Shown here piece by piece: positions 1 to 5,642 of a stretch of 5,815 nucleotides of DNA (positions within the stretch are counted from its first letter, which is position 1; the number at the start of each line of letters is the position of its first letter). The DNA lies in the IMG/VR virus record IMGVR_UViG_2740892211_000008, one strand, 5' to 3'. The notes under the pieces were generated by a model. It did no database searches. It had not been told where the DNA came from and worked only from the letters and a program-made list of their open reading frames with translations. The DNA is from a virus (Duplodnaviria > Heunggongvirae > Uroviricota > Caudoviricetes). The translations under genes were made by a program, and so were the position numbers.

Positions 1-81
1 CAAAATCGGTGGAGCTGCATGACAAAGTCATCGGGCATTATCTGAACATAAAACACTATCAATAAGTTGGAGTCATTACCG
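1..81. repeat. Left copy of a perfect 81-bp inverted repeat at the window terminus
   Basis: Positions 1-81 are the exact reverse complement of 5735-5815 (81/81). Identity breaks at position 82 versus 5734. The repeat may continue beyond the window edge, which cannot be seen. Confidence 0.95.
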
Positions 82-213: not shown

Positions 214-534
214 TTATTTTGAATCAAAAGAATTAATGCTTTTTGTTGAAAAGTAATTTTCAAGGGGTTCTATTCGAATTCCTTTCTTTTTCATTAACAA
301 GCCAAGCCCCTTATCAATGATGTCCATTAGATCCAGGAAGTATTTTTCATGTAAATCCTGGTTATCAGAGAGCTGCTTCTCTTCGTACAGACCGATAAAG
401 GCACGACGCACGTTACCGGATATAGTATCGATGGTTTCTTTTTCTACGGTACTCAGGTCAAGAGTCGCCAGTTGGGAACGAACTATATTCGCTGCCATTT
501 CCTGGAATTGCATTGGTAAATCTTTAAATTCCAT
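214..534 (-). CDS. Hypothetical 106-aa protein, AT-rich cargo gene at the distal end of the leftward operon
   Basis: ORF of 106 codons with GAGG about 8 nt upstream of the ATG at 534. Visibly lower GC than the neighbouring immunity genes. No signal peptide or transmembrane segment apparent and no family recognised. Confidence 0.6.
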   Translation of the reverse strand: MEFKDLPMQFQEMAANIVRSQLATLDLSTVEKETIDTISGNVRRAFIGLYEEKQLSDNQDLHEKYFLDLMDIIDKGLGLLMKKKGIRIEPLENYFSTKSINSFDSK

Positions 535-556
535 TATTAGCCTCGTTGGTTAGCTA

Positions 557-775
557 TTAACGTGGGTATGTAATCATTCTGGCAATGCTTAATGCCGCTG
601 CTTTTTCCAGATTGGCGATACCCTGCTCCAGAGCGGACAGATTTTCAGCCTGCTTAGCCCTGGCTTCATTGGCCCATTTCAGATCCTGCGCTGCATTAAT
701 TTTCTGGCGCATCCACTCATAAAGTTCATCATCGGTATAGTCTGGCGCGATGATGACGGGTTCTCGTTTCTGCAT
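557..775 (-). CDS. ydfC: YdfC-like small prophage protein (72 aa)
   Basis: 72-codon ORF with GAGGA 7-8 nt upstream of the ATG. It is the third small gene downstream of the DicA-like repressor, matching the remembered Qin order dicA-ydfA-ydfB-ydfC and the remembered YdfC length (72 aa). The symbol rests on synteny and length, not on a sequence alignment. Confidence 0.6.
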   Translation of the reverse strand: MQKREPVIIAPDYTDDELYEWMRQKINAAQDLKWANEARAKQAENLSALEQGIANLEKAAALSIARMITYPR

Positions 776-804
776 ACTGATTCCTCGCGGTGCTGCTTCG
801 CTTA

Positions 805-933
805 TCAGCCGTTAGATTTTGCCGAGCTGGAAAGCGCCTGTTTAAACTCACTGAAGCTGAGAGCTTCTTCGCCTTCGGCAAGGCCTTCGAAGTATTCTTC
901 GTAAGCCTTTTCCATGATTGTGTCGAAATCCAT
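805..933 (-). CDS. ydfB: YdfB-like small acidic protein (42 aa); absent from the ORF track because it is short
   Basis: Minus-strand translation gives MDFDTIMEKAYEEYFEGLAEGEEALSFSEFKQALSSSAKSNG then stop. AGGTGA sits 5-6 nt upstream, and the ATG is 1 nt after the upstream gene's TGA (tight coupling). Length and position match remembered Qin YdfB (42 aa). Confidence 0.55.
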   Translation of the reverse strand: MDFDTIMEKAYEEYFEGLAEGEEALSFSEFKQALSSSAKSNG

Positions 934-934
934 A

Positions 935-1090
935 TCACTCACCTGAGTTTCTTTCCAGCCAGCGACGGGCACCATTTTCGGTTTTAAACGTTTTGCTTTT
1001 GGTATACGTCATCGCGGTGAATGTGCCGTCCTGGTTGGGAAACACGCCGTACACCAGAGATTCGTTGTTGCCAAGACCGATAGTATCCAT
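935..1090 (-). CDS. ydfA: YdfA-like small prophage protein (51 aa)
   Basis: Start chosen at the internal ATG at 1090 (MDTIGLGNNESLVYGVFPNQDGTFTAMTYTKSKTFKTENGARRWLERNSGE), which has GAGGT 5 nt upstream. The 69-aa version in the ORF track has no RBS. Length and position match remembered Qin YdfA (51 aa). Confidence 0.6.
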   Translation of the reverse strand: MDTIGLGNNESLVYGVFPNQDGTFTAMTYTKSKTFKTENGARRWLERNSGE

Positions 1091-1159
1091 GTTGACCTCA
1101 TTTCCCCTTAACGCCGGAGTAGCGGAACTGTTTGCTGAGAACACCGTGCGGTGTCTTGA

Positions 1160-1225
1160 TGAGTGAAATTTAGAATAACCTAAGTCATATGGTCAAGATT
1201 TTTATGTAGAAAAACCTAAGTTTTT
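1160..1225 (-). promoter_or_regulatory. Candidate leftward promoter and operator region upstream of the ydfA-like operon
   Basis: Minus strand has TTGACC (complement of 1191-1196) and a weak -10-like hexamer around 1168-1174. The 10-mer GACTTAGGTT (complement of 1177-1186) lies in the spacer, and a second AACCTAAG copy is at 1213-1220. The same 10-mer recurs in the repressor/cro intergenic region. Confidence 0.4.
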
Positions 1226-1291
1226 TGGTGTAAAAAACACAAGTGTTTGAAAGTTTGTGCTTTTTATTACAGGGTGTGGAGAAAAAAGGGG

Positions 1292-1699
1292 TTATTTGTT
1301 TGCGCTTCTTTTGCGAGCTTTAAGTAGTTCTTCAAAAAGTTTGTTGAAATTTTCAACTCGAGCACGCATCTCTGACAACAGGGCCTTTTGCTCTGAGTCA
1401 GGCAGTGCGTCGAACAGTTGAAGTAACTCTTTTTGATCTTCTGTCAGAATGGCTGGCTGATTATTCGGGATCGGTTCGCCTGGTTGTTTATCTTCATCCC
1501 CAAAAAGAAGCCAAGTCGGTGAGCACTGAAGCGCTTGGCTCAGTGCGAATAATCTTTTCCCCGCCGGCTGTGTTTCATCTCTTTCCCATTGAGAAATTGT
1601 TACGTGAGCCACTTTGACCAGCTTACCTAATGCGGCCTGAGACAGTTTTAATTTTTTACGCCTATGTAAGAGGCGAGCACCGAAGGTTTCGTTTTTCAT
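1292..1699 (-). CDS. dicA: DicA-like XRE-family HTH prophage repressor (135 aa, cI functional analogue)
   Basis: N-terminal HTH (KLSQAALGKLVKVAHVTISQWE) and a C-terminal segment (LFALSQALQCSPTWLLFGDEDKQPG ... MRARVENFNKLFEELLKARKR) that closely matches my memory of E. coli Qin DicA. Same 135-aa length. Divergent from a Cro-like gene. No Shine-Dalgarno upstream of the ATG. Confidence 0.8.
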   Translation of the reverse strand: MKNETFGARLLHRRKKLKLSQAALGKLVKVAHVTISQWERDETQPAGKRLFALSQALQCSPTWLLFGDEDKQPGEPIPNNQPAILTEDQKELLQLFDALPDSEQKALLSEMRARVENFNKLFEELLKARKRSANK

Positions 1700-1775
1700 A
1701 TTAGGGAATTCTAATTTTTCTTGACTTAGGTTTCTCTACGATCTGGTTTCCTTAGGAAAATCTAAGGAGCTCGAT
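1700..1775. promoter_or_regulatory. Divergent promoter/operator region between the repressor and the Cro-like gene
   Basis: 76-bp intergenic region. Contains TTGACT (1721-1726) overlapping GACTTAGGTT (1723-1732), plus CTTAGG at 1751-1756 and CTAAGG at 1762-1767. AAGGAG RBS sits before the cro-like ATG. A TAGAAT-like -10 on the minus strand (complement of 1708-1713) sits about 7 nt from the repressor ATG. Confidence 0.5.
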
Positions 1776-2003
1776 ATGTTGAAAATTGATGCTATAGCGT
1801 TTTTTGGCAGCAAAACAAAGCTTGCCAATGCCGCAGGAGTTAGGTTGGCAAGCATTGCTGCATGGGGGGAACTGGTTCCTGAAGGTCGCGCGATGCGCCT
1901 GCAAGAGGCATCCGGCGGGGAACTTCAGTACGACCCCAAAGTTTATGACGAATATCGTAAGGCAAAGCGGGCGGGGCGGTTGAACAATGAAAATCACCCC
2001 TGA
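1776..2003 (+). CDS. dicC: Cro/DicC-like small DNA-binding regulator (75 aa; YdaS-like)
   Basis: 75-aa ORF divergent from the repressor with AAGGAG 6-7 nt upstream. Size and position match the cro/dicC slot of lambdoid immunity regions. The dicC assignment is by position and size only. Confidence 0.65.
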   Translation: MLKIDAIAFFGSKTKLANAAGVRLASIAAWGELVPEGRAMRLQEASGGELQYDPKVYDEYRKAKRAGRLNNENHP

Positions 2004-2538
2004 ACAGGTTTGTGAGGCTCTGGATGCCTGGGTATGCCGACCAGGAATGACACAGGAGCAGGCGACGATATTAATCACGGAAGCATTCTGGGCTCTGAAA
2101 GAACGCCCGAACATCGATGTTCAACGCGTCACGTTTGATGATGGCGCGGTTGATCAACGGGCGCTGGGCGTTAACCGGGTGAAGATATTCGAACGCTGGA
2201 AATCTATCGACACCAGGGATAAGCGGGAAAAATTCACGGCGCTGATTCCGGCAATTATGGCGGCTATCCGGATCAGTGATTTCAGGTTGTATCGTGAAAT
2301 TACTGACGGAAAAAGCATTACGTACATGATCGCCGGGTTAAACAAAGAATATGGCGATGTGGTGGAGTCAGGGCTACTTTTTGCGGATCCAGCTGTTGTG
2401 GAACGTGAGACTGACGAACTTATAGAAAAAGCTATTGCTTTCAAGCGTGCGTATCGTCAGCAATACCAACATTACTTTGCAGATAAACAAATATCTGTCT
2501 GGGGTTCGTATGAGTATCGATGCGCTACGATGGGCTAA
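1987..2538 (+). CDS. YdaT-like protein (183 aa), the proposed CII functional equivalent
   Basis: Immediately downstream of and overlapping the Cro-like gene by 17 bp, which is the slot occupied by YdaT in Rac/CP-933P-type prophages. Family assignment is by position and general resemblance, not an alignment. Confidence 0.5.
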   Translation: MKITPEQVCEALDAWVCRPGMTQEQATILITEAFWALKERPNIDVQRVTFDDGAVDQRALGVNRVKIFERWKSIDTRDKREKFTALIPAIMAAIRISDFRLYREITDGKSITYMIAGLNKEYGDVVESGLLFADPAVVERETDELIEKAIAFKRAYRQQYQHYFADKQISVWGSYEYRCATMG

Positions 2539-3550
2539 AAAGGTGAAAACCGGCAGTTCATCCAGTAAGTCAGTATTGACCTGGCTTGCTGATATGTGCG
2601 GTGCCGATTTGTGTGCATACCCGTCTGTATCTGCACTGGCAGAAGTAACGGAACTGAACAAAAAGACTGTGCAGGACAGCTTACGACACCTGATGGAGAT
2701 TGGGTTAATTGTTGATACCGGTGAGAGAAAAGGCCGGACAAAACAAATTGTGGTGTACCGACTTATCGGTGTTGAAGAAAGTGTTACCGAGGATGAATAC
2801 ACCCAAAAACGGGAGTCTTTAAAGGTAGGTAAAATTGGTACTGTTAATAAAAACAGAACCGAAAACGGTTATGTTTCAGCACAAAACAGCCCCAAAAACG
2901 GAACTCTTTGCTGCATGGAAAATAACCAAAGACACCCAAATTTTCCATCAAAGACACCCAAAAACGGATCACGGAACCCAAAGGAACCCAAAGATTTAAA
3001 CCCCACACATAACGCACGCGAGAGTGCTCCGACCAGTGAGCAGGAAGTTTTGTCGTTACAGGCAGTCCCCCCTGTATTCCTGGATGGCCTGAGCGAACCC
3101 ATCGGAAAATTTCCGATGACCGATAACTGGTATCCGTCACGGGATTTTCGACGACGGGCTGCGTTGTGGGGGATGGCTTTGCCGGAGACAGAATTCACAC
3201 CTGCTGAACTTGCCGCATTCCGGGACTACTGGGCAGCGGAGGGGAAAGTGTTTACGCAGGTTCAGTGGGAGCAGAAATTCGCCCGTCACGTAAATCACGT
3301 CAGGGCGCAGGTTAAACCAGTCAGCAAGGGGGTAAACCATGCAGCAGCACCAGGTGGAACCGCATCACGGGCAGTTCAGGAAATTCGGGCAGCACGTGAG
3401 CAGTGGGAACGTGAAAACGGATTTATCAGCGACGGAAACGGCCTGGAAGCTGTGGGAGCTCATGGGGGAGGTTTATTCGAACCGCTGGACCCAGAAGAAC
3501 GGGGCCGCACCTTCGAAGCTCTGGATTGCACAGATTGGCGCGATGACTGA
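2510..3550 (+). CDS. Replication initiator, lambda O functional analogue, with N-terminal HTH/winged-helix and C-terminal DnaT-like region (346 aa from ATG 2510)
   Basis: Start placed at the internal ATG at 2510 (MSIDALRWAKKVKTGSSSSKSVLTWLADMCGADLCAYPSVSALAEVTELNKKTVQDSLRHLMEIGLIVDTG), a typical phage initiator HTH N-terminus. The C-terminal segment (TPAELAAFRDYWAAEGKVFTQVQWEQKFARHVNHVRAQ) resembles DnaT-like domains of prophage replication proteins. A low-complexity linker holds iteron-like DNA repeats. The last 212 bp overlap the P-like gene out of frame. Confidence 0.7.
   Translation: MSIDALRWAKKVKTGSSSSKSVLTWLADMCGADLCAYPSVSALAEVTELNKKTVQDSLRHLMEIGLIVDTGERKGRTKQIVVYRLIGVEESVTEDEYTQKRESLKVGKIGTVNKNRTENGYVSAQNSPKNGTLCCMENNQRHPNFPSKTPKNGSRNPKEPKDLNPTHNARESAPTSEQEVLSLQAVPPVFLDGLSEPIGKFPMTDNWYPSRDFRRRAALWGMALPETEFTPAELAAFRDYWAAEGKVFTQVQWEQKFARHVNHVRAQVKPVSKGVNHAAAPGGTASRAVQEIRAAREQWERENGFISDGNGLEAVGAHGGGLFEPLDPEERGRTFEALDCTDWRDD
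2856..2994. repeat. Iteron-like repeat cluster inside the O-like gene (putative replication origin)
   Basis: Repeated CCCAAAAACGG-type units at about 2858, 2891, 2932, 2955, 2975 and 2986 (for example GAACCGAAAACGG, CCCCAAAAACGG, ACACCCAAAAACGG, GAACCCAAAGG twice). An AT-rich stretch lies just upstream at 2821-2855. Lambda's origin is likewise iterons embedded in the O gene. Confidence 0.45.
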
Positions 3551-4004
3551 GCAGCAAATCCGGCAGGTCTGCCGCCAGTGCATGGACTGCTGCCGGGCGG
3601 GTGAAACATGGCCTCCGGACCTGGCTGAGTTTGTGGCGCTGATTTCGGAAAGCGGGGCCAATCCATTTGGTCTGACGGTGGATGCTGTGATGGAGGAGTA
3701 CCGCCGCTGGCGCAATGAGTCCTGGCGATACGACGGAAGTGATAAGTACCCGTGGTCTCAGCCTGTGCTGTATCACATTTGCCTCGAGATGCGTTCAAAG
3801 GGGATTGAACGCCAGATGACCGAAGGGGAGTTAAAACGGCTTGCAGAACGGCAGCTGACGAAATGGGCAAAGCATGTTAGCAACGGCCTGAGTGTTCCGC
3901 CTGTCCGGCGACAACTGGCAGCACCCAAACGTCCTGCGGGACCAACGCCAATTGAGTTGCTGAAACAGGAATATGAACGCCGGAAAGCGGCTGGGTTTGT
4001 CTGA
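3339..4004 (+). CDS. Lambda P-like replication protein (221 aa; helicase-loader family)
   Basis: Strong RBS AAGGGGG 9 nt upstream of ATG 3339. Segments (AMTEQQIRQVCRQ..., PDLAEFVAL, YPWSQPVLYHICLEMR, TEGELKRLAERQL) resemble the lambda P layout as I remember it (TTMEQVNAGMRVARRQ, PGQFVAWC, YPWKSNAHYWLVTNLYQNMR, TDAELRRKAADEL). Sits directly after the O-like gene as in lambda. Confidence 0.65.
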   Translation: MQQHQVEPHHGQFRKFGQHVSSGNVKTDLSATETAWKLWELMGEVYSNRWTQKNGAAPSKLWIAQIGAMTEQQIRQVCRQCMDCCRAGETWPPDLAEFVALISESGANPFGLTVDAVMEEYRRWRNESWRYDGSDKYPWSQPVLYHICLEMRSKGIERQMTEGELKRLAERQLTKWAKHVSNGLSVPPVRRQLAAPKRPAGPTPIELLKQEYERRKAAGFV

Positions 4005-4036
4005 TTTGAGAAGTAATTTTTACCGGGAGGAAATTT

Positions 4037-4783
4037 ATGGAGACTGTTTTTGACGCACTGAAAGCGATGGGAAAAGCCACGTCGGTAGAGCTGGCTGCGC
4101 GACTTGATATCAGTCGTGAAGAAGTGCTGAACGAGCTGTGGGAACTGAGAAAGGCTGGCTTCGTTGATAAAAGCGTATACACCTGGCGTGTGGCTTATAA
4201 CAACGTTCAGCAGGAACAGCCAGCGCCGGCAGAACTGTCGGAAGAAACCACCACGGCAACAGTCGCTAAAATTTCGGAGTGCGATTTAACTGCGACGGTT
4301 GAACAACGCGGACCACAAACGGCTGATGAGCTGGCTACGTTGTTCGGTACAACATCACGCAAAGTGGCTTCAACGCTGGCAATGGCAATCAGCAAAGGTC
4401 GTCTGATTCGTGTAAACCAGAACGGTAAATTTCGTTACTGCATGCCGGGCGATAAGTTACCAGCAGAGCCGAAATCCGTGCCGGTAACGGAAAATGATGG
4501 TAAAGCCTTTCCTCAGCCAGCAGGTGTTGCGTTACCAGTACAGGAAGCTGCAACACAGGAAGATATTAAAACAGAAACTGTGGCTGATATTGTGCAATCG
4601 TTGCCATCGTTTACTGAAACGCGAGCGGATGACCTGGTTTTACCATCGCTGCATATGGCAAACCGCGAATTGCGTCGGGCGAAAAGTCATGTCCAGAAGT
4701 GGGAGCGAGTCTGCGCCGCGCTGCGGGAGCTGAACAAGCACCGAGATATGGTTGCCGGGATTTGTCGGAAGTCCGGGCAATGA
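4037..4783 (+). CDS. Prophage protein with two winged-helix-like modules (248 aa), function unknown
   Basis: GGGAGG RBS 7 nt upstream of the ATG. N-terminal segment [33 protein letters not shown] and a second segment [33 protein letters not shown] both look like winged-helix recognition modules. Possibly a DUF1627-type prophage protein, but that is a recollection only. Confidence 0.6.
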
Positions 4784-4944
4784 GCGGATGGTGCAGGCCT
4801 GAAATTATGATACTAACAATGAAGGTAAAATGCATCGGCAGTCTGATTGGTCGTAGTGAGGCGGCGGTCAGGATGAAAGCCCGAGTTAAGGGAATAAGCC
4901 TGATTCTGCGGGGTAATTTTCACCAGTCAACAAAATATCCGTAG
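4780..4944 (+). CDS. Small hypothetical ORF (54 aa), possibly coupled to the upstream gene
   Basis: ATG at 4780 overlaps the upstream TGA (ATGA arrangement). Translation [54 protein letters not shown]. Weak RBS and no recognisable family. Confidence 0.3.
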
Positions 4945-4981
4945 CGCGATAACGGTCAAAAATCATGGCGCTGACACTTTT

Positions 4982-5224
4982 GTGCCACTGGAGATGACTG
5001 TACCTAAGTTCAGGGGAGAAGAACACGTCCGGTGGGATGGTCGGGCCAGATTTAAAGGGCAGGTCATGGCTCCAGCCAGTACGCTGGCAATGGAGGCTGC
5101 CTGGCTGGAAATTGATATGGGAACCACGCCACTCAGGGATTTACTGCCGGTCCAGAGAATAAATTCCTGTTACGGTTACACCACTGTGATCTTGCAAGTG
5201 CAGGAAAGTAGGTCTACACGGTAA
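4982..5224 (+). CDS. Hypothetical ORF (80 aa from GTG 4982, or shorter from ATG 4994), possibly a gene remnant
   Basis: Open frame only. No good RBS for either start and no recognisable domain. Sits where the phage module gives way to the AT-rich right arm. Confidence 0.25.
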   Translation: MPLEMTVPKFRGEEHVRWDGRARFKGQVMAPASTLAMEAAWLEIDMGTTPLRDLLPVQRINSCYGYTTVILQVQESRSTR

Positions 5225-5450
5225 CGCGAGTGCGTGTAACTTTTGATGTTATTTCCGTAGAAACACCGGACAAATTTTCGCTGGCAGGTCATGCTGAAGG
5301 TATAAATCTGCAGATTATGGACAATTACGGATATCCGGCAAGAGCCGGAAAAAGCATGCCGCCTCTAATTCTCAGTGGAAGATGGACTTGATTATACTCA
5401 TTGCATTGTCAGAAATAGTTATCCATTAAAGGCTGGCTATTCCAAACAGG

Positions 5451-5478
5451 ATGTTGATTACAAAAATGTAATCAACAT
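5451..5478. promoter_or_regulatory. Perfect 28-bp palindrome (12-bp arms, 4-bp spacer), candidate operator upstream of the secreted-protein gene
   Basis: ATGTTGATTACA-AAAA-TGTAATCAACAT; the two arms are exact reverse complements. About 165 bp upstream of ATG 5643 and just upstream of a consensus -10. Confidence 0.6.
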
Positions 5479-5504
5479 GTAAGGTTTATACTCTTCAATA
5501 TGCG

Positions 5505-5510
5505 TATAAT
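5505..5510 (+). promoter_or_regulatory. Consensus -10 hexamer TATAAT, candidate promoter for the right-end gene
   Basis: Exact TATAAT at 5505-5510 in an AT-rich leader. No good -35 at 17 bp (AGGTTT), which suggests activator dependence or an extended -10 type promoter. Predicted start about 5517. Confidence 0.3.
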
Positions 5511-5642
5511 TTTCCTTATTTTGTTAACTTTAAATAACAAGCTATGCACGAGGTAAAGTCGGATAAGTTTATCTGGATGTAATATATATTATTTGTAGTG
5601 TTTATAACTTTATTTCATGATAACCAATAAAAGGAGTTTTTT

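Follow-up and report, generated by a model that had tools for sequence, protein, structure and literature searches.

In lambdoid phages, the replication origin sits in the middle of the initiator gene O (PMC7466680), and the iterons that lambda, P22, and L have within their initiator genes differ from phage to phage (PMC8022706). The annotated oriλ iterons (ATCCCTCAAAACGAGGGA) fall within amino acids 116 to 144 of the 299-amino-acid (aa) O protein and are read in three frames. Here we analyze a comparable locus in a 5,815-nt stretch of Caudoviricetes DNA (IMG/VR record IMGVR_UViG_2740892211_000008; we refer to this whole stretch as the window). Its plus strand contains an open reading frame (ORF) for a 346-aa replication initiator (positions 2510 to 3550), recognized by Pfam and PHROG matches (PHROG "replication initiation protein," 1e-38) and annotated in RefSeq as a DnaT-like ssDNA-binding domain-containing protein (ssDNA, single-stranded DNA). 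A prediction made from the letters of the window, here called the original prediction, had read iteron-like repeats within this gene as a lambda-style internal origin, and every computational test was in favor of that reading. The repeats exceed chance, are constrained at the DNA level, have dyad symmetry, are inherited together with the N-terminal domain of the initiator, and are followed by the gene for a P-type helicase loader. We consider it probable that the array at approximately 2796 to 2992 is the iteron replication origin of a lambdoid prophage module, located within the linker-coding part of its initiator gene. As a lambda-type in-gene origin it would be well supported, and an ordinary case of a textbook arrangement.

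Several other described systems can be set beside this locus. Gene 18 of the lambdoid phages P22 and L encodes divergent ori-binding proteins, and the coding region contains repeats of its own in each case; in phage L, an 11-bp unit is present in six copies (PMC8022706). The repeat sequences differ from those of the window, however, none is known to share its iteron core, and the partner is a DnaB-type helicase (gp12), not a P-type loader. The DopC/DopE and YdaU-type O-like proteins of Brezellec et al. (2017; PMC5509034) combine, like the initiator studied here, an HTH_36-type or other N-terminal domain with a DnaT_C domain and are encoded beside a loader of the P-like or DnaC-like type. For DopC genes domesticated in chromosomes (HTH_36 plus DnaT_C, beside a P-like gene), however, an absence of iteron-like sequences is reported, whereas the mobile copy in the window has iterons. 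The C-terminal domain of DnaT itself forms filaments on ssDNA (PMC13377028). Initiators acting on direct-repeat arrays beside meltable DNA are also found in iteron plasmids (pSC101, R6K, P1, and RK2) and in SPP1 (G38P at oriL), although these initiators belong to other folds and families, and the plasmid iterons are intergenic, with copy control by handcuffing. In SPP1, initiator sites are also located inside the initiator gene.

Four dyad iterons in the linker-coding region

The repeats occupy the part of the initiator gene that encodes aa 95 to 160, between the N- and C-terminal domains. Within positions 2856 to 2994, where at least six CCCAAA-type units had been predicted, we found six CC(C/G)AAA units, starting at 2859, 2891, 2935, 2957, 2977, and 2987. 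A seventh unit starts upstream of these limits, at 2802, and belongs to a full iteron that they miss. Only four of the units are full iterons of about 24 nt, all on the plus strand, with the core CC(C/G)AAAACGG (also written CCNAAAACGG) and dyad arms. These are IT1 (AATACACCCAAAAACGGGAGTCTT, 2796 to 2819), IT2 (AACAGAACCGAAAACGGTTATGTT, 2852 to 2875), IT3 (AACAGCCCCAAAAACGGAACTCTT, 2885 to 2908), and IT4 (AAGACACCCAAAAACGGATCACGG, 2951 to 2974), whose arms are complementary at 7, 8, 6, and 4 of 9 positions, respectively. The unit starting at 2935 is a variant (CCCAAATTTT), part of a variant iteron (AAGACACCCAAATTTTCCATCAAA, 2929 to 2952, plus strand) with an intact left arm and the center AAATTTT; equivalent units (CCCAAATTTGGG or CCCAATTTTGG) occur in AP22, Bcep176, and Edwardsiella relatives. 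The units at 2977 and 2987 belong to a tandem of two 10-nt copies of GGAACCCAAA (2973 to 2992, plus strand), which resemble left-arm half sites. In addition, a perfect 9-nt inverted repeat (ATGGAAAAT and ATTTTCCAT, 2915 to 2948) brackets the left arm of the variant iteron. With four full iterons, the variant, and the half sites, the region coding for the interdomain linker thus contains at least three direct repeats in the same orientation.

For a consensus, 52 core-containing sites (43 of them unique) were aligned from the window and ten Enterobacterales relatives, the relatives examined being prophages of Scandinavium, Enterobacter, Kluyvera, Plesiomonas, Edwardsiella, and Serratia. Across the 43 unique sites from these 11 loci, the 24-nt unit contains invariant AA, CC, and AAAACGG and a nearly invariant TT. 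The consensus, AACACaCCC-AAAAAC-GGGaGTGTT, has two 9-nt arms that are reverse complements of each other around an A-rich center, and arm complementarity averages 5.5 of 9 positions in the family versus 2.5 in shifted controls.

The arrangement is similar to that of lambda oriλ/O-P, as well as of the Stx phages 933W and P27, in having direct dyad iterons with an A-rich center in an interdomain linker, read in several frames. Four full iterons is also the number in lambda, where the unit has the form ATCCCTC-AAAAC-GAGGGAT, compared to CACCC-AAAAAC-GGGAG in the window. In both cases the N-terminal domain and the iterons make up the specificity module, an immunity switch lies upstream, and the gene for a P-type loader follows directly downstream with a stop/start overlap. 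The layout differs, however: the window units of about 24 nt are unevenly spaced, at 56, 33, and 66 nt, whereas the lambda units measure 18 to 19 nt and follow each other at about 20 to 24 nt.

A GATC sequence (Dam site) is present at 2964 to 2967, in the right arm of IT4 (CGGATCAC), and the right arm of the last iteron in relatives L002, L014, and L016 to L018 (CGGGATCCGG) contains GATC as well.

Evidence for selection on the DNA of the repeats

The heptamer ACCCAAA occurs six times in the window, compared to 1.10 expected occurrences, with none of 200 shuffles reaching six, and five of the six copies are inside 2801 to 2992. The strict 9-mer C[ACG]AAAACGG is found exactly four times (2804, 2860, 2893, and 2959), always on the plus strand and within 165 nt, for an expectation of ∼0.13 by simple arithmetic (2 × 5815 × 3/4^9). 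With up to one mismatch allowed, there were 13 matches versus 5.1 expected, again reached in none of 200 shuffles.

The linker peptide (aa 95 to 165) is rich in Asn, Lys, and Pro, just as predicted, but its composition does not account for the repeats. The cores are used in two frames, being translated as T-Q-K-R-E in IT1 and as x-x-N-G (PKNG) in IT2 to IT4. An exact 14-nt repeat (CAAAGACACCCAAA) recurs at a distance of 22 nt and is therefore out of frame, and so is the 10-nt tandem. When synonymous codons were permuted within the gene, with protein sequence and codon usage kept, the shuffled versions of the window gene contained a mean of 0.72 cores, and the four observed were reached in a single one of 2,000 shuffles. 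Pooled over 11 homologues, such shuffles yielded 7.2 cores (maximum, 15), compared to 52 observed. The frames and the shuffles thus reveal a constraint on the DNA that is independent of the encoded peptide. Homologues that keep the linker but lose the repeats through synonymous changes had been named as the outcome that would speak against an origin; the opposite was found, with the linker peptide diverging among relatives (at IT1, Q/R/P and K/N) while the DNA core stays unchanged. Because of the two frames, the shuffle test, the persistence of the core with a changing peptide, and the iteron-free DopC genes, comparative analysis indicates that the repeats are selected as DNA and not as peptide.

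Domain architecture of the initiator

The first part of the gene (2510 to 2794, plus strand) encodes an N-terminal winged-helix, HTH_36-like domain that matches PHROG 1032, 6643, and 391 ("replication initiation (O-like)"), the best of these matches being PHROG 1032 (4.6e-38), and weakly matches HTH_36, RP-C, TrmB, and Phage_rep_O. Its Pfam HTH_36 score of 20.9 to 23.6 bits is below the cutoff of 25, whereas homologues, including that of the Edwardsiella phage EPP-1, score 30 to 47 bits. An alignment of the N-terminal domain (A1) contains a conserved wing, DTGERxGxTxxVxVY, and we presume that this domain is the iteron reader. The C-terminal part contains a DnaT-like three-helix ssDNA-binding domain (aa 201 to 267; 3110 to 3310, plus strand), with a score of 62.8 bits for Pfam PF17948 (cutoff, 25; 2.5e-17) and matches to DnaT chains in the PDB (E = 6e-19 to 5e-16), with E values of about 1e-18 for 6aep, 4ou6, and 9zbt. 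AlphaFold2 modeling of the single initiator sequence gave a mean pLDDT (predicted local distance difference test) of 39.5 and was unusable.

The label "O-like" holds for the architecture of this protein but not for its domains. The N-terminal domain scores 14.7 bits for Phage_rep_O (PF04492; cutoff, 28.7; E = 0.045), for which lambda O itself scores 123 bits, and the comparison of A1 with lambda O by hhalign gave a probability of 4.4%, the aligned part being the equivalent recognition-helix/wing region. The C-terminal domain is DnaT-like, in contrast to the Phg_2220_C domain of the lambda O family. Judged by Pfam thresholds, the initiator is therefore outside the lambda O family and O-like in architecture only. 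By its DnaT_C domain and the adjacent P-like loader gene, it belongs with the HTH_36 plus DnaT_C "O-like" proteins of Brezellec et al.

Inheritance of the array with the N-terminal domain

The N-terminal domains of the Enterobacterales prophages examined are 70 to 80% identical to that of the window by tblastn, and 67 to 76% identical for the four of them in alignment A1. Comparison with these prophages and with phage EPP-1 (together L002 and L011 to L019) revealed that the iteron core is retained at homologous positions in 2 to 6 copies, while the number and spacing of iterons differ. The IT1 position (relative position 292) is kept in most of them, and a last iteron of the IT4 type is present in all. 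EPP-1, with 58% identity over 163 aa by tblastn and 73% over the aligned N-terminal domain, has five copies of ACACCCAAAAACGG in two frames. It nevertheless differs from the window in the remainder of the module, as its initiator ends in a Phg_2220_C domain, the family reported for lambda O, and is followed by a full-length P gene.

Conversely, no convincing repeat array was found in the linkers of the Rac-SA53 ydaU (L003) and TL-2011b gp12 (L004) genes. Their C-terminal domains are DnaT-like, as in the window, but the N-terminal domain of Rac-SA53 YdaU is DUF1376, and TL-2011b has yet another one. The repeats are thus inherited with the DNA-binding N-terminal domain, being kept in EPP-1 and absent from Rac-SA53 and TL-2011b, independently of the C-terminal domain and of the loader. 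A mosaic junction maps to 2990 to 2998, where similarity to alleles with other N-terminal domains begins: alignments to E. coli genomes, phages, and plasmid records start at query positions 591 to 598, at query positions 481 to 489, or at window position 2990 or 2992. Since these breakpoints coincide with the 3' end of the array, the N-terminal domain and the array are exchanged together as a single module, as expected of an origin-specificity module. "Plasmid" matches containing the module were large chromosomal-type or fragmentary records, and we did not use them as an indication of autonomous replication.

Arrays directly after the N-terminal domain were also observed in distant HTH_36 initiators (38 to 49% identity over the aligned N-terminal domain and 33 to 43% by tblastn), namely those of phiV10, Vibrio H20, AP22 (Acinetobacter), GF-2 (Edwardsiella), Bcep176 (Burkholderia), and Mcat8 (Moraxella). 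Several of these arrays have a spacing of 21 to 22 nt and use all three frames, and their cores, often CCCAAAAACGGG, CCCAAAATTGGG, or CCCAAATTTGGG, have CCC/GGG arms and an A/T-rich center, a form also seen in the annotated oriλ iterons. It is conceivable, but in our view doubtful, that HTH_36-type initiators of gamma- and betaproteobacterial phages share an ancient lambda-like code, CCC-A/T-rich 6-mer-GGG, in their own linker DNA, and that in the DnaT_C subclass a DnaT-type ssDNA filament, nucleated from iteron-bound N-terminal domains, melts the origin or captures the strand. The hosts behind this proposal are Escherichia, Edwardsiella, Vibrio, Acinetobacter, and Burkholderia/Pandoraea. If it were true, DnaT_C initiators would be origin-specific counterparts of the replication-restart adaptor DnaT, and a derivation of the cellular dnaT-dnaC pair from a phage initiator-loader module would gain support.

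Individual arrays in this distant group showed further regularities. In Mcat8 (L010, 1800 to 2000), the unit is AAAGGGGGTACAATTTTGC, and its start, AAAGGGGG, is present in up to 8 copies at 21, 22, and 41 nt, with the copies distributed over two or three frames. In Bcep176 (L008, 1850 to 1930), four copies of the unit GGAAACAGTCCCAAA follow each other at 22 nt and occupy all three frames. The end of the array in distant relatives is followed by a conserved ...GGGA(C/T)NC(A/G)GAA(C/T)C motif, coding for G-(T/S/I)-(Q/R)-N.

Variation of the array among E. coli prophages

Variation was assessed in 51 full-length E. coli haplotypes from IMG/VR. Within the initiator gene, conservation is highest from 2929 to 2992, a segment made up of the variant unit, IT4, and the tandem. 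Only 2 of the 22 third-codon positions in this segment segregate, compared to 31 of 95 in the N-terminal domain and 71 of 166 in the C-terminal part (Fisher p = 0.005 versus the rest of the gene). All haplotypes have the same IT4 core, and none of the eight third-codon positions of IT1 segregates. In IT2, four of eight third positions segregate and a C>T change in the core is common; IT3 varies within E. coli as well, including a core change (GGA>AGA) in a common haplotype.

The GGAACCCAAA tandem has two or three copies among E. coli prophages (IMG/VR loci among L022 to L101). Where a third copy is present, it shifts the reading frame of the initiator, and repeat slippage may therefore be one route to the loss of prophage replication.

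AT-rich DNA within the array

An AT-rich stretch beside the repeats had been part of the original prediction. Such a stretch exists at 2814 to 2858 (75% AT over 40 nt) and is a candidate unwinding element, as no 40-mer of the gene is less stable than the one starting at 2814 (z = 3.2). Rather than flanking the array, it lies inside it, between IT1 and IT2, and mostly to the left of the predicted cluster, whereas the AT-rich block of lambda is located to the right of its array. Its position matches that of two extra iterons in the Edwardsiella relatives L002 and L016. Most relatives have their stability minimum at the last iteron or the variant unit (relative positions 425 to 470).

Proposed initiation mechanism and alternative explanations

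By analogy to lambda and by homology, we infer the following course of events, in which binding, bending, melting, helicase loading, and the activity of the window copy are all conditional. Upon derepression, the rightward operon containing cro, the ydaT/cII-like gene, the initiator gene, and the P-like gene would be expressed. Dimers of the initiator would bind the four ∼24-bp dyad iterons through their winged-helix domains, probably along with the variant and half sites, and would build an O-some-like complex on DNA with an A-tract at the center of each site. A neighboring segment of low stability would then open, the candidates being 2814 to 2858 and the AAATTTT region at 2935 to 2950. The C-terminal DnaT-like domain would hold the single strand, and the P-like protein would deliver the host DnaB. 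This provides a concrete origin map, with four 24-bp iterons and a consensus, that can be tested in a module unlike the lambda O/P modules that have been the focus of studies of Stx phage replication. It illustrates how a single stretch of DNA may serve both as a protein linker and as a cis-acting site, and it suggests that the ssDNA-binding fold of DnaT is also used in an origin-specific way. Our overall view of lambdoid replication is unchanged, and the principle is textbook knowledge.

A number of observations weigh against an active in-gene origin. The literature on this initiator family yielded no paper that maps or tests an origin or reports binding, and the array-free alleles of Rac-SA53 and TL-2011b indicate that an in-gene origin is not universal among DnaT-like initiators. 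The right flank of the array (2995 to 3050) has a GC content of 50 to 58% and no lambda-like AT-rich block. How well the units are phased varies with the period that is assumed (R = 0.27, 0.54, and 0.76 at 10, 10.5, and 11 nt), and for this reason helical phasing is not claimed. Further points concern decay: IT2 and IT3 vary like neutral sites, cores included; two iteron positions of the Edwardsiella relatives L002 and L016 have degenerated in the E. coli lineage, where they are now part of the AT-rich stretch; frameshifts are present in several E. coli haplotypes, in two cases because of the third GGAACCCAAA copy, and many copies therefore seem to be decaying; and a closely related prophage, PPompW, is not detectably packaged. 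Together with the insertion sequence (IS1) ends that cut the window on both sides, these points would fit an array that descends from a genuine iteron origin but has become, in this IS1-bracketed prophage fragment, a decaying or inactive relic. We regard this as unlikely, though the most plausible of the alternatives, since the initiator and P-like ORFs of the window are intact, as many full iterons remain as lambda has, and the segment from 2929 to 2992 is so well conserved.

It is less probable still that the sites bind the initiator for regulation, such as autorepression, a transcription roadblock, copy control, or exclusion, with the origin located elsewhere. Plasmid iterons do have dual roles, and a clear AT-rich element is missing to the right of the array, but the position of the repeats matches that of the annotated oriλ iterons in the O linker, and the least stable DNA of the gene is within or beside the array both in the window and in relatives. 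Moreover, the only other repeat family of the window (1194 to 1248) is intergenic, in the immunity region, and its operator-like character is itself an interpretation. The least credible explanation, which we reject, is that the repeats are a mere by-product of a low-complexity Pro/Lys/Asn/Gly linker with repeated PKNG and have no DNA function. Three of the four cores do encode xxNG in one frame, and the repeats of phiV10 and Vibrio H20 are in frame with a 24-nt period. Nevertheless, two or three reading frames are in use, synonymous shuffles fail to reproduce the cores, the core persists in relatives as the peptide changes, the conserved flanking AA/TT and the dyad symmetry are unrelated to the peptide, and the domesticated DopC genes are reported to do without iterons. 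The reading of the array as an iteron origin of the lambda type thus remains the one that we favor.

Prophage setting and gene order

The window is 99.6 to 99.7% identical, over positions 537 to 5735, to a lambdoid prophage common to many E. coli genomes; in one carrier, E. coli O103:H2 strain 12009, the prophage adjoins rspB. The initiator module is present in ∼900 of 5,426 complete E. coli genomes, including prophages of enterohemorrhagic E. coli (EHEC) O157, O103, and O145. The window does encode the predicted initiator and loader along with an immunity switch. A DicA/CI-type repressor gene (1292 to 1699, minus strand; Pfam HTH_3 and Phage_CI_repr, RefSeq annotation) represents immunity. 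On the plus strand, the gene for a Cro-like regulator (1776 to 2003; Pfam P22_Cro, 3e-13) heads the rightward operon, to which the initiator gene also belongs, and a YdaT/CII-like gene (1987 to 2538; Pfam YdaT_toxin and PHROG 163, "CII-like transcriptional activator") lies between the two. The initiator gene is followed by that of the lambda-P-like helicase loader (3543 to 4004, plus strand; Pfam PF06992, 1.6e-16; PHROG 109, "P-like helicase loader," 4e-54; RefSeq annotation), whose start overlaps the initiator stop at 3543 to 3550 (ATGACTGA). At 153 aa, the P-like protein is short, in contrast to that of lambda, and matches positions 74 to 235 of PHROG 109 without the first ∼73 profile positions. 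A longer ORF that begins at 3339 (3339 to 4004) overlaps the last 70 initiator codons in another frame, and PHROG 15931 (482 positions) covers the C-terminal part of the initiator and P as though they were fused. The loader gene is followed by a DUF1627 gene (4037 to 4783).

The sequence at one end of the window (1 to 80) recurs perfectly, in inverted orientation, at the other end (5736 to 5815), and it matches the termini of IS1-family elements found in thousands of plasmids. Inverted IS1 copies therefore flank the segment for immunity and replication, and the one on the right truncates paa, an adhesin gene (start, 5643). The exact arrangement of the window was found in none of the complete E. 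coli genomes of the collection, the best matches covering only 537 to 5735. Positions 81 to 536 are outside the 99.6%-identical prophage of strain 12009, so that the left part of the window appears mosaic, and a 106-aa ORF within this part (214 to 534, minus strand) has no Pfam match.

An Rfam scan of the window returned no match, and a promoter and terminator scan of 1100 to 4100 revealed no excess over shuffles. Two minus-strand "terminators" (2857 to 2870 and 2888 to 2905) were dismissed as iteron dyads followed by A-tracts. In the immunity region, a 23-nt tandem repeat of 2.4 copies occupies intergenic positions 1194 to 1248. Together with recurring CCTAAG/CTTAGG motifs (1150 to 1250 and 1700 to 1775), it places repeats on both sides of the DicA-like repressor gene, where they probably serve the immunity switch as operators.

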